Assembly (NCBI RefSeq): GCF_006345805.1
Contig: NC_042999.1
Coordinates: 23,312,001-23,376,000 of the forward strand
Direction: 5' to 3'
Length of the DNA: 64,000 nucleotides
Source of the DNA: Octopus sinensis
Taxonomy: Eukaryota
Shown here: piece after piece, positions 12,520 through 48,200 of the stretch
How positions within the stretch are numbered: position 1 is the first letter of the stretch
Layout: each line of letters begins with the position of its first letter
Notes under the pieces: generated by a model
Told to the model about the DNA's origin: nothing
Database searches by the model: none
What the model saw: only the letters and a program-made list of their open reading frames with translations
Made by a program: the position numbers and the translations under genes

Positions 12520-15500
12520 CTGGCAAGAAAAAGGAAAACAAGAAAATTAAATATCATCATCATCATTTACCATTTGGGATTGGAAAGAAGGTGCATGTAT
12601 TATCGAATGCACATATATTGGGTCGTCCGGAAAGTTCGTGCCGATTTTTAAAGGTCAGATAAAGGTCAATAAATACTTGCCATTACATTTTTAATCAAAC
12701 AAATATGAACCATTTTGTAGCACAATGCGTCTCCATCTTTCCTTTAACTTGAAAATACCCTCTTCCCAGAATTGAGGAGGTTTCATGGCAAAGAATCCAT
12801 CAAAGTATCTTTTTACGTCATCCAAGGAATTGAAATTTTTCCCATTAAAACTATTCTGCAGAGACCTGAATAAGCGGAAATCCGAAGGAACAATATCTGG
12901 TGAATATGGAGGGTGGGGTAACACATCCCAACCGAGCTGCAGCAATTTTTGTCTGGTTCCCAAAGCACCAAGTGCCGAAAATGAACTTTCTTATCTTCCA
13001 TTTTAAAGGGTTACAGAATTAACACAGGTGATAGGAACATAAACCTTCTTCTATGAAAAGATAGCTTAAACTGTGCTCTAAATGGAGGTGTAGTCAAATC
13101 CTATTTTATGGACTCAACCATGCTCTAAAATAAGTCGAAATGTAAGCTACTGTAAATCGGCACGAACTTTCCGGACAATCCAATACAATATATATGCTTT
13201 GCTTGTTTGCTGGTTGGCTGCGAATAGATGCAGAGGAGATGACTCTCTCAAAGTGTTGGATGTTAAAACAACTGAAAGTCAGCCAAAGGCAAGTGAAACA
13301 ACTCACCCCAAGTCCCTTTCAAGAGCGATGGACATTGATATTTCACCATTCTTGTGGCTTATCAACATCATGTACCTGAACCGAACCTGATGCAAATTGA
13401 ATAGCCTATTTGTAAAATAGTGTAAAAACCATCTGCTGGTATGCCCCGATGATGTTTGCATAGGAATAAATTCAAATATGAATAAGAAGCTTGCGAAGGA
13501 CCTGTTGGGGCAAGTGAAATCGAAATTGAACCAAATTCGATGACTGGCACCCGTGCCAGTGGAGCGCTAACAGCTCCATCCAAGCGGGATCACTGCCAGA
13601 GCAGCTGTCTGGCCCGTGAAGAGCACCATTTGAGCGTAATCATTGTCAGTGTCGCCTCACTGGCACTTGTGCCAGAGGCACGTGAACAAAACATTCAAGC
13701 GAGGTCGTTGCCAGTGCTGCTGGACTGACTCCTGTGCAGGTGGAACGTAAAAAACACCATTTTCGAGCGTGGCCGCTGCCAGTACCGTCTAACTGGCCCT
13801 CGTGCCGGTGGCACTTTAAAAGCACCCACTACACTCTTGGAGTGGTTGGCATTAGGAAGGGCATCCAGCTGTAGAAACTCTGCCAGATCAGATTGGAGCC
13901 TGGTGTAGCCATCTGGTTCGCCAGCCCTCAGTCAAAATTGTCCAACCCATGCTAGCATGGAAAGCGGATGTTAAACGATGATGAGGAGGATGATGATGCA
14001 TGAGTGTTGTAACATTATTGAATTCCTCTAAGGGATTATCAGCAGACCTCTCACCCTGATTAAAATAACAGGGATCAATTTTGTGTGTCAAACTGTTGGC
14101 GAGTCAAATGAGACTCAAATTCATATTAGAGAATAAAAACTAAATACTTAGATGCATTTTGAGAGAAAAGAAAAAAAATCTCACCTTCTAGTGGTTTATC
14201 AGACAGTGATAAACGAAAACTTCTTTGTTCAGAACAAGTGGGGGTGGTTTCCACGGAGCCAGGCAATGATACTGAAAGAGAAGATTTTAAATTGAGGATT
14301 AATCAGAAGGTAGCAGCAGAGTTTCATTAACTCTTTAGCATTTAAACCAGCCAAGATATTCTACCTATTTAATGCTCAAATGGACCAGATCCAGCCTCTC
14401 ATATCCACCCAGCAATGTCATTCTAATAATAAATAATATGTGCCAATCTCTGTGGAGGGAACCTGTGGAAGAAGTAGACCCAGGAAGACATGGGACAAGG
14501 TGGTGAAGCATTATTTTTGAGCATTAGGCCTCATGGAGGCAATGGCAAGTGACCAAGACCTTTGGCAATATGATGAGCTTGAGAAGACTCATCAAGCCAA
14601 GTGAAATCGTAGTTGTGGCCGATGCAGGTGTCACGTAACAGGCACCAGTGCCAGTGGCACATACAAAGCACCCTTCAAATGTTGGGTCTCATGGAGGCAA
14701 TGTTAAGTGACTGAGACCTTTGGTGTGATCTGCTGTGCTTGAGAAGACTCATCAAGCCAAGTGAAATCGTAATTGTGGTCAATGCTGGTGTCATATAAAA
14801 AGCACCCATTACACTCTTGGTGTGGTTGGCATTAGGAAAGGCATCCAGCTGTAGAAACCACGCCGAGTCAGATTGGAACCTGGTGCAGCTATCCAGTTTA
14901 TCAATTTCAGTCAAACCGTTTAACCCATGCCAACATAGAAAGCAGACGCTAAATGATGATGATGACGATCAATTCACAACAGTGTGAATAAACAAACATT
15001 AGATCTGACAGAGTAGTCTGAATGTTGAAAAGTTGAAGGTTTATTTCTGGGGACAAATATTTAAAACCCTCCACAGCTGTTGTTGCGTTGTTTAGCCTCT
15101 TTCAAACAATCAAACTATGACCATATTCTTTTCTATGCTAAGCACAAGGCCCAAAGTTTTGGGGGAGGAGGCCAGTCAATTAGATCAACCCCAGTACACA
15201 ACTGGTACTTAATTTATCGACCCCAAAAGGATGAAAGGCAAAGTCGACCTCCATGGAACTTGAACTTAGAGCGTAAAGACAAACGAAATACCGCTAAGCA
15301 TTTTGTCCAGCGTGCTAATATTTCTGCCAGCTTGCCGCCTTTAAATATTTTTATAGTTCATTCATTCATCCATTTTTGATGCAATTGGCATGAAGATCAT
15401 CAAAATATAATGTAAAACAAACTTGCTACAACTATACATACATAGTAAGCAAAATACATACACACAAATACACTTTTACTTCTTTCAGTCATTTGACTGT

Positions 15501-24700: not shown

Positions 24701-27700
24701 GTCTCCTCAAGTACAGCAGGTGACATGCCACATTTTAGGAAATATACAAAAAAATGTTTCTTTGTATTTCTCAGAGGGGTTTCAATTTGAATCAATTAAG
24801 CTGGAGACATGGAATTCATCAAAAGATGAAGGGTCATGTTTAATATGAGAAGGGTGCAAGTTATGGTGGTTGCTATCATTGGAGCATTGCATTCCATAAG
24901 ATAATTTTTGTGAAAAAGAAACCATTAAGACTCATACAATAATATAATCTGTAGAAAAAAAATTATAAAAGTGTTGTGTCTGGAGAGAGTCATTTTCTTT
25001 TTGTGCCTTATTATGTAACACACTCACCGGAAAAATTTCCACTATTTTTCTTATTTCTATTGTCCTAAAATTTTCGTTGTGTCTTGCAACCTTTTCAATA
25101 GTTTTGACTCTTTGAGAGTCAAAACTATTGAAAAGGTTGCAAGACGCAACGAAAATTTTAGGACAATAGAAATAAGAAAAATAGTGGAAATTTTTCCGGT
25201 GAGTGTGTTACATAATAAGGCACAAAAAGAAAATGACTCTCTCCAGACACAATAGTATATGCTTCAACACATGAACTCATATAAGGAATCTTGCAAACCA
25301 AATCCAAAAACGAAATTATAAAAGAAAATCGATAAATGGAAGTAAATGGACACTTTAACACATTTTGATATGTGCACCACTAGTGGTTTTTTAGGCACAG
25401 ACTATAATATTTGCTATGTACTATAGGAACCACCAGTGATACCCATGCTATAAATCAATGTGGTAGTTTATATAGTGAACCAGAACATTCATCATTGAAC
25501 ATCCAAGTTCCATGCTGGCATGTGTTGGACAGTTTGACAAGGATCCAATGAGTTAAAGACTGTATCGTACTCTAGTGTCTGCTTTGGCATGGTTTCTAGA
25601 GATTGATGCCTTTCTTAATACCAAGCACTTTACATTGTGTACTGGGTGCATTTCTCACACCACTGGCATCATTGAAGTTACCATACAGTTTGCAAGTCAA
25701 CAAACCCAGGAGGAAGGATATATATATATATATATATATCCTAATTTACACTAATTTACTAGTAAGAACTTGTAACTTTGGGAATTGATGTGATAGTTTA
25801 TTTTTTAGAATGACATTGTAGGATAGGTGTGAGAGGCTGGATCTAGCTGGTTTTAATATAAAACAGGTAGAATATTTGGGTTGGATTTGGGTGGTTTAAA
25901 TTAACTTACAGATGATACATAGTCTTTCATAGCCTTTTCATGACTGAGTTTTGCAGGGACCTTAATTCGAGTTGGTCTTCTTAATGAAGATGCCTTTGTG
26001 TTGTCAGTATTCTGAAATAGATGAAAAATATATAACAACAACGATAACAATAATGATAATAATAATAATAATAATAATAATGATGATAATAAAAATAATA
26101 ATAATAATTATAAATTACCCTGATGCAGTACTAGGCAGTGGCTCGCATGGCTTCTCATCTTAACTGATTGGAAGTGCTATCATGTGTAAAAGATGGGCTA
26201 CAGCAAATATTCTGCTCAATACCACAGATCTGCTCGTCAGTTGTTTGACCTTAACCAGTAGAGCATGTCCCTTAGTGGCTGACAATATGTGCATCTCTGA
26301 TCAGGAGCAGAAGTAGTAGGGGAGTATCATAGTCGTGTGTTGAGAAGGATTCTTTGGGGTTTGAATCAAACTTCTTAACCACCACGGCCACCCCTGCAAA
26401 CTTCTTAACCACCACAACCACCCCTGCAAACTTCTTAACCATCACGGCCACCCCTGCCCCTAAGCACAATCATTACAACAATTAACAATAAGACATGGGA
26501 TCAATTATACCTTTTTGTTGACATCTTTATTGGTTTGGTTAATTGAACAATGAGCATCAAGAGAAAACTGACTGCTTGTTGGGTCGCTAAGTTTCAAAGA
26601 TGGTTTAGTATGCTTGGTATTCTGTTTGGTAGCTTTCAAGGTGATAAGATCTTCAGAGAGCCTGCAATAAAGTTTAATAGGTATTTAAAAAACAAAACTT
26701 TGCATTTCAAGTTAAAAGTCATTTGAACCTTTAAGCATTTAAACCAGATACATCTGGCTGAAATATTTTACCTGTTTTACGCTTATACTGGCCATATCTG
26801 GCTTTTCACACTAACCCTACAATATCATTCTAAAAATGTAACAGTCATCTCGTCAAAATCTCGAAGCCACAAGATGATGCATGATTAATTTAAAACAATG
26901 AGAATAAATAAGCATTTTGTCCACTCTGCTGGGTGGTTGGTGTTAGGAAGGGCATTCAACTAGCCATAAAAACCATGCCAAAACAAGACACAGAAGTGCA
27001 TATACATATATACAATGGGCTTCTTTCAGTTTCCGCCTACCAAATCCACTCACAAGGCTTTGGTTGGCCTGAGGCTATAGTAGAAGACACTTGCCCAAGG
27101 TGCCATACAGTAGGACTGAACCCAGAACCATGTGGTTGGTAAGCAAGCTACTTACCACACAGTGGGACTGAACCCGGAACCATGTGGTTCATAAGCAAGC
27201 TACTTACCACACAGTCACTCCTGCGCCTATAATTAATTGATAAATGATAATGAAAGAAAAAGATGGTAATGGTGATGAAGTGAAATGGAAAACACTCATC
27301 TGGTTAACTAACCATAGCTGGTGAGTGAATTTGAACTAATAACCTTTAGGATAGTAATTTAATGCTTTAATTGGCCTCTACACTATAGACAAATAATAAT
27401 AATAATCCTTTATGCTATAGGCACAAGGTCTGGATTTTTTTGGTGGGGAGGGGGACAATCGATGACATCGACCCTGGTACTTGACTGGTACTTAATTTAT
27501 TGACCCTGAAAGGTTGAAAGGCAAAGTCAACCTTGGCAGAATTTGAACTCAGAGCATAGCAACAGACAAAATACCATTAAGCATTTCACCCGGCATGCTA
27601 ACGATTCTGCCACCTTACCATGTCTGACATCGTCATCGTTTAACGTCCGCTTTCCATGCTAGCATGGGTTGGACGAATGACTGAGGGCTGGCGAACCAGA

Positions 27701-34399: not shown

Positions 34400-37300
34400 A
34401 TCATCATCATCGTTTAACGTCCGTTTTCCGCGCTAGCACGGGTTGGATGGTTCGACCGGGGTCTGGGAAGCCAGGGGCTGCACCAGGCTCCAGTCTGATC
34501 TGGCAGAGTTTCTACAGCTGGATGCCCTTCCTAACGCCAACCACTCCGTGAGTGTAGTGGGTGCTTTTTACGTGCCACCTGCACAGGTGCCAGGGGGGTC
34601 CGGCATCGGCCACAATCGGTTGGAGCTTGAGAGAGAGAGAGAGTCATCATCATCATCATTTAACATATTATACAAACATGTATATTATACATAAAATTAT
34701 CTCTTACCAGATTGCAATTTTTCATGATACATCTGTAAACTGAAGTTGGAGAGTTTAATTAAACTGAAAAGAGAGATAGAAAAATGAATAAGCTAAAGCC
34801 TCAGAAGGTCAGCAAAAAATTTAACTAATACTGTACAAGGTACTAATATTTAAAACATAGACCAAAATGTCAACAGCACAGCAGAGAATTCAACAATCTT
34901 AACAATACCATGGAATCATTTATGATCAGAACTAAAACAACAGCAACTAATAACTTCTTTATCATTTAAAACTTTATATATTAGAATATTACATACTGCA
35001 TTTGATGGTATAAAAGATGTTACTTAATTTCAGGATAAAAAAGTTTGGATCTTTACTTTTTGACCGAGAGATTAAAAAAATAATTTTTTGTAACTAAACA
35101 CTTTCAAACTTCAAACACTGGTAGAATGTGTCATATAAAACATCTTTTAGTGTGTGTGTGTATATATATCACGTGACCGACCAGACCATCAGATATTGTT
35201 ACACATCGCTGGTCACAATGCGTTCGCATTGTTTTAGCCTTCGAATGACGCCACCCCGCTGGTTAAGCGAGCAGGCCAACAGAAGAAAGAGTGGGAGAAA
35301 GAGTGGTGAAAGAGTACAGCAGGAATCACCACCCTCTGCCGGAGCCTCGTGGAGCTTTTTAGGTTTTTTCGCTCAATAAACACTCACAACGCCCAGTCTG
35401 GGAATCGAAACCGCAATCCTACGACCGCAAGTCCGCTGCCCTAACCACTAGGCCATTGCGCCTCCACGTGTATATATGTATATATACACACAAACACACA
35501 AATATATAAAGACACTACGCTCATTATTATATTAGGAGATGTCAAAAACATTGCCTTACCTAACAATATCCAGTTTTCCTCTTTTGTAGAGACTCTCAAC
35601 TTTCTCCTAAAATATTAAAAAGAAAACAAAATAAAAAACCCCGAGGAATACACAAATTCAAAAAAATTAAAATTATCCACAAAAAAACTATTTTAAAAAT
35701 CACATATTGCACAAATAATCATCTTTTGTATATTTTATCCTTCTCATCACCATTTTTACATCTGCTTTGGATTGGATTAGCCTTCTTAACCCTTTCCATG
35801 CAAAATTAAATTTCATAATTATTTCAGTAACTATTTCTACTCTAGGTACAAGGCCTTGAAAATTTTATGGGGAAGGGGACTGGTCGTTTATAGCGACCCC
35901 AGTGTGTAACTGGTAATTATTTCATCAACCCCGAAAGGATGAAAGGCAAAGTCAACTCAGAACGTAGCGGTAGATGAAATACCTATTTCTTTACTACCCA
36001 CAAGGGGCTAAACACAGAAGGGACAAACAAGGACAAATCGATTATATCGACCCCAGTGTGTAACTGGTACTTATTTAATTGACCTCGAAAGGATGAAAGG
36101 CAAAGTCGACCACGGCGGAATTTGAACTCAGAACGTAGCGGCAGACAAAATACAGCTAAGCATTTCACCCGGCGTGCTAACGTTTCTGCCAGCTTGATGC
36201 CTTAATTATTTCAGTAATGATGTTAAAATATCTACCAAACAATAAAATTTGTAATTTTCTGTAAATCATGTTGCCTCAATAAACTTTATATATTTTAATG
36301 AAAAAAATAAGTTGCAACTATGACATTCCTTAACAAATGATAGATAGGGATATAAAACTGATTTTTACAGTTAAGGATAATTAAATTTTGAGTGGATTTA
36401 ATTTTTCAGCATCCTGAAGGGTATTCAACTGCAGAAACAATGCCAAAGTAGACATTGGAGGTACGATGTAGTTCTTGGACCCATCGGATCCTGTGAAACC
36501 ATTCCAACCCATGGAACATGGACATTAATTGATGACAATGAGGATACGGAAATCTCACAAAAACAATGGATTATTAAAAATATAAAATATATATATATAC
36601 TAGCAGAATTGCCCGGCGTTGCTCGGGGCTGAATTGCTTGAAAGTACTGTTAATGATTGCACTGAATTATGATGATTATTCAGGCAAATATTGATATAAG
36701 CTTACGGAGGGAGATAAGGACTTAACGATCAAACGTGTGCCATTGCATTGTTTTGGGAGAACCAAATTTCTGATGAGCATTATAGGGGCACCAACTTTAA
36801 GTTTGAGAAAGTGTGGTGGTAGTCCGGGGTGCTCAAAGGAATTGAGTACCTCTATTGGATAGTTGATGACGTCCTCTGGGTCAGGAGTTGTATCGATAGA
36901 CTGATATACATAGACTTCCCCAGGAATGAGTTTTAGCATTTCATCATTAATATGGTGAACAGTTTTATTCCTCGGGGCCAGTATAGCCTTTTTGCCAATC
37001 CAATCCATATTCTGATAATTAGCTTGTAGATCTGGGAACACTGCATCTCTGAGATCAGAAGGCGTCTTAACAATGGTACAAATGGAATCGATGGCAATAT
37101 TACCATTTTCATCCCCTGGTATTTTGCCTTCGCCAAGTGCAAGGAGGGTGTGAGGAAATGCTGTTGATGTGATATTACGTCGCATATGAGCACGCATATT
37201 GGTGTGAAGTTTGAGAGTTACTTCCGTTTATTTTATAAAATATGCATTAAAATGGAAAAAAATGATGGTAAATTATTTGTAAAATCATAGACTCATCGTA

Positions 37301-37870: not shown

Positions 37871-40800
37871 TACATACACACACACATACATGCATACATA
37901 CATACATATACACATATACCGAGTAAAAAAATTCAGTTATCTCTCTCTTTCACACATTACTCTCTCTGTCTCTTCACACACACTAACAGAAGCACTTCAC
38001 TTACACAACATACTGTCTGTCTCCCACACTCCATCAAACACACACACACACACACATGTACATCAATGCGTCCCATGCACGGTAACTTCAAAAGAACTTC
38101 CCTTGTCATACAATCGCTTTCTCTTAGTCTCTTTCGCTCTCATTACTTATGTAAAAAAAATAAAAGTTTTTTACGGAAATCGACGGAAACCTGTGCTACG
38201 ACAAGCGAAACATTGCCGATATAGGTCTTATATTCGTCCTAAAAAACTTTCCTGTCACACACGCACGCACACGCACGCACACACACACACACCCTCACAC
38301 TCGCACGTTAGCTTACAATTTTATTTATATATTTGCGTGTCTATGTGTGTAAAGAGGAAGTGGCAGACTGAAAGAGTCACTCACTACAAAAGGTGAATTA
38401 CTTTCATTTTATTTGTTGCACACTGTGTGTGTGTGCGTGTGCGTGTGGTGTAAACCACATTAAGAAAAGCATTTGACACACACACCAGAATGTGAGTTTT
38501 CTGTAAATTTTGCTTAATTGGAGTTTAAATTTTAAAAAGTGGACCTAGCAAAACCCGATGCATTCTACTCTTAAAAATGCTAAGTAAATTGTAATTGAAG
38601 AAATCCTATATTGTAGATTTCTATAACTGACAAAGGGAGGCAGATAAAATCTGCCTTTTATAATAAGAGATATAAAGTGAGATAGGGGTTCTGAGTGTAA
38701 CCCATTACCTCAATACATCTGACTAATATGAGCATAATGAGATACTCTTATCTACAGGCTGAAACAGCTGTAAGATCCATTATATATGTATTATTCTTAT
38801 GGTATTATTTTACTTATTGATGTATATTGTTTTAATCTGTATTATTCTGTTGGATTTGGATGTTCCTATTTAATCTAAATAATTAGTTAATAAATTATAT
38901 GAATTGGTATAATCTGGTAGTTGATGATTGAAAGAAATCTATTCCTCCATTTTCTTATTTTGTATTATATATATATATATATATAAATATGTTTACCTCT
39001 TGAATTTCTTTCTCTTTAACCTGAAGCAGCTGGTCTGGAATACAGGCATTAATTAACTGCATATCAAGTTTGTGTTTACTCTCAAAGCTTTTGATGACGG
39101 ACTGGATTGTCTCTCTGTCAGCATTCTGGGACTGTATCTGATGAAGTATGTCTTTCCACTGGTGTTTGATCTGATGAGAAGAAAACAGGTTTTGATTTTA
39201 GAAAATATGAAAAAGAATTAAGATGAAAATAGTGGTAGTGATAAGGAATTGGAAAGGAAACCCAATCACATTTTAAAACTTAACAACCATAAAAGCAAGC
39301 AGAGTTGCAAAGAAAACAGATAAAACATGCCGAAGCAGGGAGTTGTGGGGTCAAATACAGTATAGGACACTTACCCAATATAAAACTTCATTTCTTGATT
39401 CATCTGTACCATCACAATTTTCTTTAGTGCTGGGTAAAAATTCAAGTAATTCAACAAGATATATAAATAGGTATTTCTGAATATTCATAGTTAGAAACAA
39501 TGAGATATATTCTACACAGAGCAAACATGCAAGTATATATGGATCAGAACTAGAGGAGAAATTTCAGGTGTGGAAACAAGGATTAGAATCAAAGGGCCTT
39601 AGAGTCAACCTAGCTAAAACCAAAGTCCTAATAAGTAGGAAGGCAGGCAAACCACAAATCCCTTCAGGTAGATGGCCCTGCTCGATCTGTAGAAAAGGCG
39701 TAAGTAGAAACTCTATAAAATGTACCCATAAGAGGTGCAGCAATATCAAAGGAAGGCTAACTGGGAAGATAGTTTTTGTTTGTGGCAAGATGCTCAGGAG
39801 CAATAAATAACACTGAAAATGTGCAGAGAACAACTTCTGTCACATTCCAGGGAGAAAAACTAGAAGTAGTTGATAGCTTCCGTTACCTAGGTGACCAAGT
39901 CAGTAGCAGGGGTGAGTGCTTTGAAAGTGTAGCTGCTAGAATAAGAATAGCCTGGGCAAAGTTCAGAGAGCTCCTACCTCTGCTGGTGACAAAGGGCCTC
40001 TCACGCAGAGTAAAAGGTAGACTGTATGATGCATGTTTATGAACAGCCATCTGGCTCACCAGTCCCCAGTCAAACCCATGCCAGCATGGAAAGTGGACGT
40101 TAAATGATGATGATGATGAATAGATCCTGAGAACTTTCAGAACAAGAGAGCAGGAAACTATGCTGGTTGCATAGAGGGCATTTGCCTCAGTTGTGTGGGT
40201 TACTGCTCTCAACTAAGTCTGCCCACATCATCATCATTGTTCAACATCCGCTTTCCATGCTGGCATGGGTTGGACAGTTTGACCGGGGACTGGCAAGCCA
40301 AGAGGCTGCGCCAGGCTCCAGTCTGATCTGGCAAGGTTTCTACAGCTGGATGCCCTTCCTAATGCCAACCACTCCAAGAGTGTAGTGGGTACTTTTTACA
40401 TGCCACCGGCACGAGAGCCAGTCAGGTGGGGGGTGGTATCAACCACGTTCAGATGGTACTTTTTACATGCCACTGGCACAGGGAGCCATTCCGGCGGTAC
40501 TGTCAACAACCTACATATGAATGGTACTTATTGCATGCCACCAGCAAGGGAGCCAGTGACCACAACTACAATTTCCATTTGGTTGTGATCTGATTTGATT
40601 TTGTGTCAAATTAATAGCATAACTTGAAGCAGTTCGGCAGTACCACACCAAGAAGATTGCATCAATAGAACAGCTGAGCTACAAGGAGAGACTGAAAGAA
40701 CTACAACTCTCCACCCAGGAGTGAAGACAGGAGAGGTGTGCAGTGATATACATATGGAAGATCCTGGATGGGTTGGCACCTGACTTTGGCATCAAGAGCT

Positions 40801-43800
40801 ATACAAGACACAGAACTGGAGCCGTTCAAGAATTTGGACCTGGAGATCTCCATTTCCAGCGACTTTGAGGGCCACCTCCTAGTGGTGCCGGGCATCAACA
40901 AAGAGCCCGCCCTTGACTACAAGACAACCAAAGTTTTTTTTTTTTTCCAAGATCTGGGGTCTCCCGCCCCTAAGCCCTAGACCATCACCTAATCACCCTT
41001 ACCTGTCTTGGTGCTTAACAACAACAGAACTGGACATCACTATATGGTTCCGAAGGTCCCAGCCATCCTATCTATAGTGAGGGCTGTATTGCAATAGCTT
41101 GGGATTCAAGGGCCCATGGCTGTGTAATACCATGCCAAAACACCTGAGAGATCTGCATGGAGTTGAAATGGATGCTTTCAGGAAACAACTTAACCTCCTG
41201 CTGTCAAAGGCCCCAGATGAGCTTACATTATGGCAAGAAACTTGAAAGAGGGCAGGAATATCAAACTCACTCCTTCACATAAGAAGGGTGATAATACTAA
41301 CAGTGCCCCAGTATGGCCACAGCCTTTGCACTGAAATGCTTAAAAGAATCAAAGAATATACATATTTTTAGACAGACAGACAATCACTCACTTGTTTTCT
41401 TTTAATGCATCCTTTAGACTTGAATTCATGCGGTTTATTTTTTTGAACTGGATTTTGTATTCTTCTGTGAGTTTCCTTGGGAAAGAAAAAAAAAAAATTC
41501 ATGAATTTCAGTACAATCTGTTAGTTTAGTGGAACATTTTGGCTGTTTACTCAGAATTAGTGCAAGATAGAATATATCTGGAGGTTGGAATCATCATCAT
41601 CATCATCGTTTAATATCCGTTTTCCATGCTAGCATGGGTTGGACAGTACGACCGGGGTCTGGGAAACCAGGAGGCTGCACCAGGCTCCAGTCTGATCTGG
41701 CAGTGTTTCTACAGCTTGGTGCTCTTCCTAACGCCAACCACTCTGTGAGTGTAGTGGGTGCTTTTTATGTGCCAGGGGAGGCTGGCAACGGCCACGATCG
41801 GTTGGTGCTTTTTATGTGCCACCGGCACGGAAGCCAGTCAAAGCGGCGCTGGCATCAGCCACGTTCGGATGGTGCTTTTTACGTGCCACCAGCACAGGTA
41901 TCACAACTACAATGTCCATTTGATTTTTATTTTGATGTTGATGTACTTGACTCAATAGGTCTCCTCAAGCACAGCAGGTTGCCCTTCGATCCCAGGTAAG
42001 CACAGCAGGTCGTAACTTTAAATTAAATCTATGGCAAATAGCTATATTGGACATGTACCATATATAACCTAAAACTATATCTGCTGTGATATACTCCCAC
42101 TTTGAGGAAAGTTCTGAACAATGAGACACCATGGGCCTCTACATGGTCACTCGACATGCTAGAAATAGCCACAAAATTTCCTTTACCCTTTTAACACCAA
42201 CTTACTTGAAATTGCCCCTAGATCTATGATGCAAATTCCCTGCTTTAAAGTGATCGAAATTAAAATCTTCCCTCAAAATTCCATATCAATTTATGTTTTA
42301 AACACCATGTAAATAATGAGACAGTTTTTTTCAATAAAATTTTTATCATTTTCAAAGTTTACTGAAACAAAGCAGTGAATTTCAACAAAAATATGGTAAC
42401 CAAAATGTTAAATTCAGAGACTGCATCTAAAAAATTTTTTCGAAATGGAAGACACATTGGATGGAATAGTACTAGGTATACTATGCCTAAGGAAAGTAGA
42501 CGAAGACACTTTTTCACTAGTGTAGCTAGAGTGTGTGCCACCCAGGGCAGCCTTTCAGTTTGTTGCCCCTGGGCCCCCACAAAACATACAAAATCCCTAC
42601 AGCAGACCTAAAAGTGGTGCTGCCCAGGGCAGACTGCACCCTCCACTCCCTTCTAGCTGCACTAGTTCAACTTTTACAACTAGAATGCTTTTGCTCTTAT
42701 GCCTGTTTGATGAGAGCTGACAAGAAGCTAAACTGCAAGATGATGCTCAGTTCAGCTTCTCTTGAGTTTGTGCTTATATTGTGTCTATGTAGATCAGAGA
42801 TGAGAATCATTTCACCGGAGATATTTAAGTAGCAGTTGTATACTGTCAACTTAATGTGACAGTCCCATGAAGGGAATCACACCACCGCTATTTAGCCCTA
42901 GGAAGCATCAACGCTTCCTGTCGGCCCTGACACATTTCCTGTGTCCTTATGTTTACAAGGGGGAGACAAGCACCCCCAACAACTAGGCCTGCATCCAGAG
43001 ACATGTTTCTGAGTCTTGCTCATCATCAGTCTGGAGCAGCAAAGCCTGCAGCTGAAGATACCTGTCTAGACTTGGTAAACATATATATATATATATATAT
43101 TTTCAATGAAGTATATTCACTGATCACCAAAATTAGAAATGTTAAATTTCTAAATATCTCAAAGAGATATAAGCAGTGGTGGAACGATAGAGCAGTTGTA
43201 TACTGTCAACTTAATGTGACAGTCCCATGGAGGGAATCACACCACTGCTATTTAGGCCTAGGAAGCATCAACGCTTCCTGTCGGCCTTGACACATTTCCT
43301 GTGTCCTTATGTTTACAAAGGGGAGACAAGCACCCCCACCTAGCTAAGCCTGCATCCAGAGACTAGTTTCTGAGTCTTGCTTGTCATCAGTCTGGAGTAG
43401 CATGGCTTGCTAGCTGGCTGCAGATGCTTGTCTAGGCCTTGTAAACATATAATAATTCCAGTGGAATAAATAAGTAGCGTTAACCTAATATTGTATGGAA
43501 ATGTCCAACTGTAAGCTTTCATGAGCCAATGAGGGCACTAACTTGGAAAAGCATGATGGTTCATTCCTTAAAACATAGAGAACAACCACAGATGTGTGGG
43601 TAAGAAGTTTGCTTCGCAAACCACAGTTACTAGTTCAGTTTCACTGTGTGGTACTTTGGGCAAGTACCTTCTACTATAGGTTCAGACAGAGCTGTGCCTT
43701 GTCAATGAATTTACTTGATGGGAACTTTGTGGAAGCCTGTCATATGCATGTGTATATGTGTGCATGTGTGTGATCATCATCGTCATTTAACATTTCTTTT

Positions 43801-45213
43801 TCCATGTTGGCATGGGTTGGATGGTTTGACAGGAGCCATACCAGGTTCCATTGTCTGTTTTGGTATGGATTCTACAGCTGGATGCCCTTTCTAATGCCAA
43901 CCACTCGACAGTGTGTACTAGATGCGATGTGTGTGTTTAGAGAGAGAGAGATAGAGTGAGGAATTGATAAAAACTATACACAAGGCACAGGAGTGGCTGT
44001 GTGGTTGTGGTAAGTAGCTTGCCTACTAACCACATGGCTCTGGGTTCAGTCCCACTGCGTGGTACCTTGGGCAAGTGTCTTCTACTATAGCCACAGGCCG
44101 ACCAAAGCTTTGTGAGTGGATTTGGTAGACGGAAACTGAAAGAAGCCCGTCGTATATATGTATATATATGAGTGTGTGAGTTTGTCCCCCCAACATCGCT
44201 TGACAACCGATGCTGGTGTATTTACATCCCCGTAACATAGTGGGTTGGCAAAAGAGACCAATACAGTAAGAATAAGTCCTGGGGTCAATTTCCTTGACTA
44301 AAGGCAGTGCTCCAGCATGGCCACAGTCAAATGACTGAAACAAGTAAAAGAGTACAAGAAAATACTAGAGCTGTACAACTTAACAGATATGAGATGTTCA
44401 GGAGCTGAATATAAAGGGAGAGAGAGATTCCTAACACATTTAATGTAGAATCTAGGTGGTCAAAGATGGATTATTCAGATAACATGACAACGATAATGAG
44501 GAATGGAAGCGAATATAAGCTTACTTTGTAGCCTCTTGCCATTTCCAGTAGAGTTTTAGATTCTCATCAATGCTCACCAACAATGACTGGACATTTTTGA
44601 TTGTGGCACATTTCAGGATCTTCGGAATGTGGGCTGCTTGAGGAAGTGAGGGCTTCAGTGTTGGACATCTAAGATAACCATCTTTGATATTACCTACAGC
44701 AATAGATACAACAACAGAAAAAAAAATAATATATATTAAAGAACAGATATAAAGAAATAAGAACGCCTTACTTCCCTGGGCATGGATACATTGAAACTCT
44801 GACGTCTGGCAGCTGACTTGGCAGACACCCATAAAATTATCAACCATCTTACTAACAATAACTCTGAGCACCTTTTCAAACTCTACCTGTCTAACACCCG
44901 TGGACATGTTTACAAAGTTAGAAAACAGCACAGCTCCCATGACTTTCGGAAACATTTTTTCACGCTAAGAGTTGCTGAAGTATGGAACAAACTGCCGGCA
45001 TCAGTTGTTAGTTGTCGGAGCACTGCATCCTTCAAAACTTCCATGCTTCCTGAGATTTGCCAACACTACACCTGATTTTCTCCCCTCCAAACACACGCAA
45101 GCATGTATCTGACTCATACACTGTTCACTTTCCAGACATTTGTACATTACTGCATATGCTTTATACGCACTTTTGACAAGTTGTAGTGCACCTGAGCACT
45201 GTATACAATAATT

Positions 45214-45248
<35 letters not shown>

Positions 45249-48200
45249 AGAACAAAAATAATTAAAGGATCTGCAATTCATTAAGGGTCATAGAAGATGA
45301 CAGTTGTCATCATCTTTAATAAAAAATGCAAAATTTTGTTTGTCTGTTGGAGACGCCTGTACCTCTGTCTACATATATATACTCTACATATGTATATTAT
45401 GCCATTTTGGAATCAGGATAATCCTGGGACTGAAAATCTGCCCTTCATTTGGTTCTTGAACATCCAGCATTGGGATCAGATCTTGATGAGGGTCTGTTAT
45501 ATGCTAACAGTTGAAAATTCAAATTTTAAAAGAACTCCAAAAATTTGTGAACATACAAGTTTTTCCTTTAAACTGAATTTAAAGTAATACCATATTGTCA
45601 GGCTTCCAATAAATGCTTTATCATTACTGCCCTCTTTAATTTGGGGCTGCAGGAGTCAGGTTAAAAGTCTGCACAGAGTGTCGCTTTTAAGCTAGTAACC
45701 ATTGTTTTAACGTCTACTTTTTCTAGCTCACATGTGTAGAATGGAATCTGTTAAGTCAGGTTTTCTACAACTGGATGCCCTTCCTGTCAATTTTCACCTG
45801 TTTCCAAGCAAGGTCATATTTCTCCATAGTTAGACAAGTTTTTCACGGAAGACTTGAAAGGAACGATTTTGCTTGTATGATGATGATGCACATCCAACAA
45901 CTATTACATGCTGTCTAGACCAGGGTACACACACACACAAAGTGTGGCTCTCAAAGACACAAATGATGACTCTGAAGAGTACAGTTACTGAAACACTGTG
46001 ACCATAATAAAAAGACAAAAAAAAAGATATGTCTGAACGTATCAGCATATAATTTAGATAATCCCGCATCTCAATAACTGAAGCAAAATCTTGTAAGTTA
46101 AGACTAGATTAAGCTATGTTACAGAAAAAAAAAATCAGTGAAGAAGTAGCTATACAATAAATATAAAGAGAAAAAAAAATTTTTATTACATTCTTTTTTC
46201 AGTGTTTTGAGTAAAACATATCTGGACAAGTAGAAGAGGAATTGCTCAAATTTGTAACCTCCAGGTGACAGGAACAGAGATGGGAACACGGAATTAAATC
46301 CTGCTTCTGGATCCTCCTGGGAAATAGAAATAGATGAAAGACAAATTTATTTGGTTAGATATGATGGATTCTCTAGTTATATATGTCCCTGGAGAAGGAC
46401 ATCATGCTCGGAATGGTCAGTGGCAAGAGAATAAGATGCCGACCAAGAACCCACTGGCTTGACACCATCAGGAGTGAAACCGGAATGGACATGGCCAATC
46501 TGAAGGAAGCGGCCCAGGATAGAACTGACTGGAGGACACTGATCCAACGAGTGAACGAGAGTCAACTTCGACTGAGTGGATAGAGAGAGATATGTACCAT
46601 TTGTATTAACTTAAATGGAGATGAAAATATATATACATATATATATATATAATTAAGGGTTAAGCAACAAGTTGCTTCACCACATACCAAAAATTTAGAA
46701 ATAGCAGCCAAAAGACAGCTCATTTCTTTTTACTACAGATATGACTCCACAGATAACAATATTTGTAACTCACATAGGCAAAAAGAAGAAAAATAACGAA
46801 ATCAAACAGTCTTCGATTAATTATGGACACGTTTCTGGATTAGAATTATACAAATTCATTTCCATCCTCAACATAATATTTCGAGAATTTATAAATTTGC
46901 AAATGCTATGAACCTACCCTTTGCATCCCGATCAAGCGGGATGCAAAGGCATGGGTTTGATAGGAGCTGGCCAGGTAGAAGTCTGCACCAGACTTCTATG
47001 ACTGTCTTGGCAGGATTTTTACAGCTGGATACCCTTCCTTACACCAACCACCCAGCAGAGTGGATTAAATATATATATGTGTGTGTGTGTGATTGTTCCC
47101 CTTACTGCTTGACAACTGCAGTTGGTTTGTTTATGTCCCAATAACTTAGTGGTTCAGCAAAAGGGGCCAACAGGATAAATACCAAGGGTTTATTTATTCA
47201 CCTAAATCAGCATGGTTGCAATCCAATGACTGAAAACTAGTAAAAGATAAGACTAAGCAGACGAATTATGGTGAAAAATCAAAGAAAAACTTGAACCTAC
47301 CTGTGCAATTTTGTTTAGCCAGTTGCAAAGTTCCTTTCTGAAGTATTGTTCTTGCTTCTTGTCAAAGACTGGCCAGAATCCTCTGCAAGAAAGAAAAAAC
47401 ATGGTCCTTGGGATGGAAAAAGAGGAATTGTTGAAGCAAACATTTCCATAGCCAAATTATTTTTCTTAGCTTTACTGTGTGGGAACCAAGTATACTGTTT
47501 TGATGTATGTCCACTTGAGACAGGGGAACTTGTCTTCTGACAGAGAGGTCATCATATGATGATCATCATTGTTTAATGCCCACTTTCCATATTAGCATGG
47601 GTTGGACGATTTGACAGAGGACTGGTTAGGAAGGGCACCCAGCTGTAGAAACTCTGCCAGATCAGATTGGAGCCTGGTGCAGCCATCTGGTTCACCAGTC
47701 CTCAGTCAAATCATCCAACCCATGCTAGCATGGAAAGTGGAAGTTAAACGATGATGATAATGATTTCTTTACAATAAACACAAGGAGTTGCAAACATGCA
47801 ATGTAAAAACAAGACACACACCCTTCAAGAATACTGAGGCAGATGTTGTGTAACTCCTGCTAGATCAACCCTAACTGAGAGACCCTTTTATCAAAAGGCA
47901 TTCCAGCCAATAACCTTTCTGTCCTTTTACTGGACATTGCATTGTTGGACTACATTAACGTGTTGCTCCCATTTCAAGAAGAAAGAGTGTGATGAGAGAG
48001 AGAGATCAGGCTGCTACTTCTAGCAGGGTGAACACCATAAAGGTACTCCCAGCCAGCTTGAAATGAGGAAAATGAAAGCAAGAGAGAGAGAAAGACTTCC
48101 AGATGATTTACATCAATAGTTCTCAAGAGGGGTTCACATGACCCTTGGGGGCCCAGATAAGATTTTGTTGTTAAAATTTACATGCAACAAATTGGTTATA

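Follow-up and report, generated by a model that had tools for sequence, protein, structure and literature searches.

A decayed two-hammerhead insertion in Octopus sinensis and its probable membership of a non-autonomous, Penelope-mobilised retrozyme family

This analysis concerns an insertion in a 64,000-nucleotide stretch of the Octopus sinensis genome (assembly GCF_006345805.1, contig NC_042999.1, positions 23,312,001 to 23,376,000 of the forward strand), the whole of which we call the window and number from its first letter. The insertion lies on the minus strand at 42831-43471 and carries two hammerhead ribozyme motifs. It is probably a decayed two-hammerhead copy of a non-autonomous family of non-LTR (long terminal repeat) retrozymes with a unit of about 355 nt, moved by a Neptune-type Penelope reverse transcriptase (RT) and GIY-YIG endonuclease. 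A first-pass annotation made from the letters of the window had proposed a non-coding, retrozyme-like or Penelope-dependent family, and at the level of the family our results bear this out: the unit is closed, occurs in high copy number, bears a hammerhead, and its insertions have the marks of Penelope-type elements.

That annotation placed the element at 42831-43451, with two copies at a period of about 360 nt. The copies and period stand (direct copies at 42831-43085 and 43191-43451, offset by 360-361 nt; 233 matches and 22 mismatches over 255 aligned bases), but comparison with the family and the flanking duplication move the 5' limit to about 43471. The 110 nt that separate the direct copies are, by comparison with other family copies, part of the repeat unit, and the whole insertion, read on the minus strand from 43471 to about 42831, is a partial tandem of 641 nt or 1.8 units. 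Its 8-bp target-site duplication (42826-42833 and 43471-43478) overlaps the 3' end of the element by 3 nt, and since this one duplication pair surrounds the whole 641-nt element, it points to a single insertion event. The predicted cuts at 43361/43360 and 43000/42999 are 361 nt apart, as annotated, with GUC followed by UCUGGA at both. All of the small hairpin arms listed by the annotation are also found in the unit (for GGGGG on the plus strand, the copy at 42959 alone is exact), and its statement that the unit has no coding content agrees with the lack of any tblastn match to four Penelope proteins; only one frame there reaches 110 amino acids (aa), a stop-to-stop run of 119 aa on the opposite strand. 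The parts of the insertion are as follows (A and B are the two 3' ends used by the family, and L numbers designate individual loci).

42831-43471, minus strand: whole insertion, about 1.8 circularly permuted units of the ~355-nt non-autonomous element, whose 3' end is the short end A
43471-43478, no strand: 8-bp target-site duplication on the element's 5' side (such duplications were also tested family-wide, below)
42826-42833, no strand: 8-bp target-site duplication on the element's 3' side, its 3-nt overlap with the element end being microhomology
43308-43451, minus strand: upstream long hairpin, an extended stem I tipped by the hammerhead; UA-loop subfamily, fold z -6.3
43355-43396, minus strand: upstream type I hammerhead, predicted cut 43361/43360; 6-bp stem I, core CUGAUGA/GAAA, damaged stem II (CAAG/CUCA), palindrome ACUAGU
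43000-43360, minus strand: predicted cut-to-cut monomer of 361 nt, 41% GC, a two-subfamily chimera whose ends are paired in a predicted rod
43191-43305, minus strand: multi-hairpin domain of the upstream unit, ending at the short 3' end A, ~43188
43134-43188, minus strand: optional ~55-nt "tail" from 3' end A to 3' end B; end B follows an AT-rich hairpin
43086-43133, minus strand: rest of the unit, with a short (TA)n run; of the AU-loop subfamily and closest to L042 (95.5% over 43100-43190)
42947-43085, minus strand: downstream long hairpin with hammerhead; AU-loop subfamily, nearest L042/L056 (~95%), z -4.4
42994-43035, minus strand: downstream type I hammerhead, predicted cut 43000/42999; 6-bp stem I, 4-bp stem II (UGAG/CUCA), palindrome ACAUGU
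42831-42945, minus strand: multi-hairpin domain of the downstream unit, ending at 3' end A

A local tandem duplication of DNA, or a minisatellite with a chance hammerhead-like motif, would likewise leave a pair of direct copies at a nearly constant period. Such an origin is refuted by the hundreds of dispersed copies of the unit, the different nearest relatives of its two units here and the conservation of the core across branches (all described below), and the one duplication pair around the whole also stands against it; we give it practically no chance of being correct.

A hammerhead descriptor (CTGANGA-N8-30-GAAAC-N2-8-GTH) has two matches in the window, at 43361-43390 and 43000-43029 on the minus strand, where 0.19 are expected; one of 100 shuffled windows reached two. 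Both hammerheads have a 6-bp stem I (UCCAGA/UCUGGA), CUGAUGA and GAAA boxes, a GUC triplet, and a helix III of two pairs closed by a two-base loop. The upstream motif has loop III UA and only two pairs in stem II, and the downstream one has loop III AU and a stem II of four pairs; they sit at the tips of hairpins of about 140 nt (z -6.3 and -4.4, respectively). The annotation had suggested an Rfam search as a check; the covariance models of the hammerhead families (clan CL00010) gave no match at the locus at E<=1 over the whole window or E<=10 locally. In the predicted linear fold of the 361-nt monomer (z -9.5 against shuffles) the ends are paired into a rod, and the predicted circular fold has an energy of -131.2 kcal/mol, compared with -88.3 +/- 5.8 for 40 shuffles (z -7.4). 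RNAalifold, run on an alignment of 47 of the long hairpins, gave a different, partial fold without the hammerhead.

The annotation had left room for a single-copy unit with no conserved core elsewhere; we found instead hundreds of copies and a conserved core. An exact 35-nt core has 85 matches in the genome, a looser core pattern 558 exact matches and a 3'-hairpin pattern 386, and the reversed control of each has none; these three counts are lower bounds on copy number. A DNA search of the genome gave 2977 first-look candidates, 40 of which were scored. The copies are mostly scattered monomers and partial tandems rather than tandem arrays. The unit of about 355 nt is closed, in that long copies wrap into their own 3' end, and head-to-tail examples form a minority of loci (the window locus, the L023/L227 and L046/L228 dimers, and L262, a 2.3-mer of an older branch). 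This older branch, at about 70% identity, has a likewise closed unit. A sister branch at 55% identity, with loop III UCGA, palindrome ACUCGAGU and 197 exact core matches, retains a length of 347-353 nt and the order of the hairpins, and its multimers reach about 3.6 units with near-identical units. Its loci include L325 (C5:69021200-69023800), L326, L300, L029:1040-1490 and L098:6430-6770, and judged by sequence this branch looks a better candidate for an active source than the window locus. Natural cut-to-cut monomers from the three branches (n=8) are 347-361 nt long, and most of them, folded singly, are predicted to form the same end-joining rod followed by the same series of hairpins (L262 and L300 less so); a joint fold of the eight has two-sided changes in 16 of 54 pairs, a thin sample, five of its members being sister copies. 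At L292:150-800 and L262:450-750 lie relatives of the unit that are remoter still and have degenerate hammerheads, and their sequences suggest further old branches. In four of 24 sequencing runs presumed to be RNA (85% likeness), contigs cover family sequence with many differences from the window locus, and its unique flanks are uncovered; joints in these contigs that go back 356/357 are explained equally well by genomic tandems and are not used as evidence.

Among 30 old (~70% identical) and 35 young copies, picked irrespective of their cores, the commonest letter of the old and young groups is identical at 15/15 core and 12/12 stem I positions, compared with 232/292 positions elsewhere, and departures within the groups amount to 3% in the core and 7% elsewhere; the core is intact in 17 of the old and 24 of the young copies. 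Constancy of core and stem I while the rest diverges would indicate that the RNA of the ribozyme is under selection. Among 97 distinct cores (many of them found by pattern), 68 have TA and 26 have AT in loop III, so in 94 of the 97 helix III stays palindromic through a two-base change. Pairing in the long hairpin stands at 93% across 47 copies, and 12 of its 51 pairs have two-sided changes (6.1 +/- 1.6 when shuffled), for a structure built from one member with the hammerhead imposed and leaning towards that member.

How the family moves can be read from its insertions. We used a sample anchored on the 3' hairpin, which avoids selecting intact hammerheads; among 100 matches listed of the 386, 86 loci were analysed (14 were skipped, mostly from earlier sets, which biases the sample against long copies), and the removal of three duplicates left 83 insertions. 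Their 3' ends fall at two points about 55 nt apart (A in 49, B in 29, other in 5), and their 5' ends are dispersed round the unit, with only three near the cut. Forty-seven insertions cross the predicted cut and 13 are longer than one unit; this excludes a linear cut-to-cut monomer as the template and leaves a circle or an uncut multimer. An inverted 5' arm is present in 34, and all 24 of the inverted pairs that could be classified combine one A with one B end (Fisher p 5e-7). Duplications of at least 8 bp flank 23 insertions (shuffled pairs give a mean of 2.8 and a maximum of 6), and dinucleotide runs abut the 3' end in 35, against a background of 133 of 3388 flank windows (3.9%). Accounts of Penelope-like elements (PMC3846280, PMC8557442) describe an inverted 5'-truncated copy, a tail on one of two inverted pseudo-LTRs (pLTRs), short duplications and a bias towards microsatellites (our statements about published work refer to the parts of the cited sources available to us). 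The insertions of the octopus family carry this Penelope-type signature: 5' truncation, inverted arm, one-ended tail, short duplication and microsatellite bias. At one inverted insertion, L039/L166 (C2:23970233-23970705), the two arms differ in their stem II variant, and two different RNAs may have fed it.

All of this anatomy would be equally well explained if the Penelope machinery copied a linear, uncut multimeric transcript, possibly antisense, with the hammerhead cutting rarely or serving to pair RNAs, and with circles irrelevant to mobilisation. The lack of a pile-up of 5' ends at the cut and the existence of sister-branch multimers of up to ~3.6 units agree with such a template; minimal Penelope hammerheads are also reported to cleave poorly in vitro (PMC4209133), and an antisense template has been proposed for Penelope itself (PMC3846280). 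On the other hand, the branches share one catalytic core despite their divergence in the rest, the rod joining both ends of the cut-to-cut monomer persists even at 55% identity, and axolotl and mussel units of similar size yield circles (PMC7229834), and for these reasons we regard an exclusively linear template as rather unlikely.

The genome does contain Penelope elements that could have supplied the enzyme. Open RT + GIY-YIG frames of 775-781 aa have a C-x4-C-x2-C linker, and a cysteine linker of that kind is given for the Neptune and Nematis clades (PMC8557442); Penelope-like families with open RT + GIY-YIG frames, 775-811 aa in all, are represented by L093:2532-4874, L094, L095 and L097, by L098, and by L283-L285. 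A young related Penelope family (20093 candidates, 150 scored) ends in the same two ways at (TA)n or (TC)n, 14 copies being short and 14 having a tail of about 40 nt. A further L093 frame, 479 aa long, overlaps on the upstream side and gave no convincing Pfam match. Named relatives of the Penelope protein of this genome occur in records of bivalve gill symbionts and in an Atlas cluster in which Mollusca is the most frequent known phylum; neither source gave a cephalopod label.

The octopus unit might then be nothing more than the pLTR of an autonomous Penelope family, its copies being truncated ends of that family. The type of hammerhead, the pair of 3' ends, the inverted arms, the duplications and the microsatellite targets all occur in pLTRs, and Penelope fragments do occur within 1.5 kb of 3 of 210 family loci. 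But several hundred unrelated bases lie between the unit and two of these fragments, and the third is old (22-35% identity); in 29 of the 83 insertions the sense arm, followed upstream beyond the hairpin, enters the 3' sequence of the unit itself and never coding sequence; and the flanks common to different copies consist only of microsatellites and one common interspersed repeat. No family copy is continuous with an RT or GIY-YIG open reading frame (ORF) among the 210 fetched loci (duplicates included, a sample of the genome), so that the annotation's proviso that all related copies might be pLTRs of full-length Penelope elements does not describe what these loci contain. The Penelope families examined each carry their own, different hammerhead-like motif, and altogether we consider a pLTR origin very unlikely. 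Two weak matches in the pLTR search, L292 (55 nt, E 0.011) and L087 (34 nt, E 0.039), were rejected, as they look like separate insertions of distant relatives.

The hammerhead-like motifs of the Penelope families lie in the 3' untranslated regions (UTRs) of L093/L094, L104 and L283-L285; they have a U3-A8 core variant (UUGAUAA or UUGAAAA), which has been described in a schistosome element (PMC4209133), and a palindromic helix III (ACAUGU, ACCGGU). The stem I of the L093 motif is weak. In the window itself, positions 13309-13383 of the minus strand give a weak match to Rfam Hammerhead_HH9 (25.2 bits, E 0.061, gathering score 52), with a UUGAUAA...GAAA core variant, a 4-bp stem II and no clear stem I; from its sequence it is possibly a decayed Penelope-type hammerhead.

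Taken together, mobilisation of the retrozyme family by a Penelope enzyme could proceed as follows. A few multimeric source loci would be transcribed on the hammerhead strand, and paired hammerheads with matching helix III palindromes are predicted to cut at GUC and free a monomer, whose ends the long rod would hold together for a host ligase to close the circle. The subsequent steps have left visible anatomy and would be the work of the Penelope enzyme: target-primed reverse transcription starts at end A or B, often in (TA)n or (TC)n runs, passes the cleavage site and halts at dispersed points, and a second, inverted arm, starting at the other fixed end, is often added. Most products are single or partial-tandem copies that decay afterwards, and the window locus is one insertion that joins two subfamily templates, probably through a template switch or a mixed source RNA.

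Several observations weigh against this scheme, or against particular steps of it. The two units of the window are 91% alike, equal to the 91% median of random copies, which is not what a single template read round a circle would give. The median likeness of terminal redundancies and inverted arms is 92%, compared with 89% for random copies, and the units of the sister dimer L300 differ from each other at 11 positions and from the nearest outside copy at four; over redundant segments, inverted arms and sister multimers alike, outside copies are often as close, and the comparison does not single out one rolling-circle template. For the copies that cross the cut, a multimeric transcript left uncut is as good a source as a circle. 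The first pair of stem II is C.A in 58 of the 97 cores, U-A in 20, U.U in 13 and A-U in 6, and the next pair is G-C in 82; for a mismatch at the base of this stem, U.U in HHR_Amex2 provides a precedent (PMC7229834). Of nine Xenopus retrozyme dimers tested in one study, a single one cleaved (bioRxiv 10.64898/2026.07.22.740005). Finally, neither the 50 + 29 Penelope loci examined nor the GIY-YIG, protein (from the Penelope fragment beside L234) and old-branch DNA searches yielded a Penelope family with sequence in common with the unit (in the GIY-YIG family search of the genome 150 of 5029 candidates were scored and 20 loci fetched). The partner enzyme is therefore assigned by class and not by identity; its Penelope class is well supported.

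The annotation went further and had the window locus itself release a 361-nt circle, from 43360 to 43000. Li, Clavereau and Pollet (2026, bioRxiv 10.64898/2026.07.22.740005) count a retrozyme locus as active when two units follow one another and both have a complete hammerhead. Here two consecutive units do have intact cores, GUC triplets and 6-bp stems I, the monomer is predicted to be stable with paired ends, and hammerheads from other loci could act as partners in trans. But the dimer joins two subfamilies: the closest match of the upstream hairpin is L002/L037 (98.4% over 43341-43471), that of the spacer and downstream hairpin is L042 (~95%), and the junction lies between ~43335 and ~43185 (the upstream unit as a whole has a 96.9% relative elsewhere in the genome). 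The two palindromes differ, and the mismatch between ACUAGU and ACAUGU makes the usual 6-bp double-hammerhead helix between the window hammerheads impossible; the predicted energies of the helix III homoduplexes are -4.8 and -4.6 kcal/mol, and that of the heteroduplex is +0.9 (+1.7 when forced). For hammerheads whose helix III is this short, activity is reported mainly from dimers (PMC4209133, PMC7229834). The upstream stem II is in addition reduced to two pairs and is without the G-C pair kept in 82 of the 97 cores, and the CA and TG found at this place, where CG is commonest in the family, look like CpG decay. Mismatched palindromes and a broken upstream stem II make excision of the 361-nt RNA from this locus doubtful, unless trans partner RNAs act. 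We thus do not uphold the self-excising circle at the locus level: the window locus is likely a weak or dead source of circles, and we think it unlikely that it is an active one that excises and circularises its monomer.

A more speculative reading, to which we give little credence, is that the family belongs to an old lineage of viroid-like ~350-nt RNA circles with at least three branches in this genome, alike in fold down to 55% identity, in which the palindromes ACUAGU, ACAUGU and ACUCGAGU would form a pairing code and kissing hammerheads would keep two RNAs together for the Penelope protein to copy at one site. If true, such a code would explain the inverted pairs of short and long arms and the mixed-subfamily dimers, and it could dock a circle onto Penelope mRNA (the intact L093 family carries a degenerate ACAUGU hammerhead).

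The class to which we assign the octopus family is already known, and the family is a further non-LTR retrozyme with unusually clear anatomical evidence of Penelope mobilisation. Like the metazoan non-LTR retrozymes of mussel (units of ~350-390 bp), axolotl (330/350 bp) and coral (Cervera and de la Pena 2020, PMC7229834), it has a type I hammerhead with a short palindromic helix III, co-occurs with Penelope elements, has a non-coding unit (347-361 nt, within their 150-450 nt) of less than 50% GC, duplications of more than 4 bp, a strongly self-paired predicted circle, and some head-to-tail copies. Unlike them it is mostly dispersed, its longest multimers being ~3.6 units rather than long arrays, and its two-end, inverted-arm signature goes beyond the retrozyme description of that paper, whose main text does not contain the words "octopus" or "cephalopod". 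The vertebrate retrozymes of Li, Clavereau and Pollet (2026, bioRxiv 10.64898/2026.07.22.740005; 31 vertebrates, 3 insects and 1 coral) are likewise non-autonomous and hammerhead-bearing, with dispersed monomers, rarer multimers and a proposed dependence on Penelope; 24 of 57 Xenopus families matched a Repbase element. The link to Penelope is there drawn from co-occurrence and pLTR homology, whereas in the octopus it comes from insertion anatomy, with no pLTR homology found in the Penelope loci examined. With the pLTR hammerheads of Neptune-type Penelope elements that have the endonuclease (EN+; PMC4209133, PMC8557442, PMC3846280) the family shares a palindromic helix III, predicted dimer activity, partial tandems, an inverted 5'-truncated arm, a one-ended tail, 8-10 bp duplications and microsatellite targets; it differs in lacking an attached ORF, in having a self-closed unit with canonically sized stems I (6 bp) and II (3-4 bp), and in its longer tail (~55 nt, against 30-40). 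Plant LTR retrozymes (Cervera et al. 2016, via PMC7229834 and PMC6765202) likewise place a non-coding, self-paired unit between two hammerheads, but those have type III hammerheads (the octopus hammerhead is type I), a fixed LTR pair, which the octopus element does not have, 4-bp duplications (~8-15 bp in octopus) and units of 600-1000 nt (355 nt in octopus). No such family was found in the literature on octopus, cephalopod and further mollusc retrozymes and hammerheads, repeat databases and some supplements being outside its scope, and the family would extend retrozymes to a lineage for which we found no report. Earlier proposals that Penelope moves animal retrozymes drew on co-occurrence (PMC7229834) and on similarity to pLTRs (the 2026 preprint); the octopus family gives the Penelope signature directly and quantitatively, all 24 of the 24 arm pairs having one short and one long end. 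The same genome holds intact young Penelope ORFs and near-identical sister multimers, and with the insertion signature these make both the mover protein and the choice between circular and linear templates testable with defined parts.

The remaining features of the window touch the retrozyme family less closely. Positions 25037-25174 form a near-perfect palindrome of about 138 nt that is MITE-like (miniature inverted-repeat transposable element) and matched plant miRNA models below thresholds only. A 183-aa frame at 36676-37227 on the minus strand resembles a fragment of the PIF1-type helicase of a Helitron. Near the insertion there are many copies of short interspersed repeats, at 40226-40557, 41595-41905, 43633-43923, 44044-44365 and 47556-47764, several of which have (CAT)n ends and 67-nt internal tandem units.

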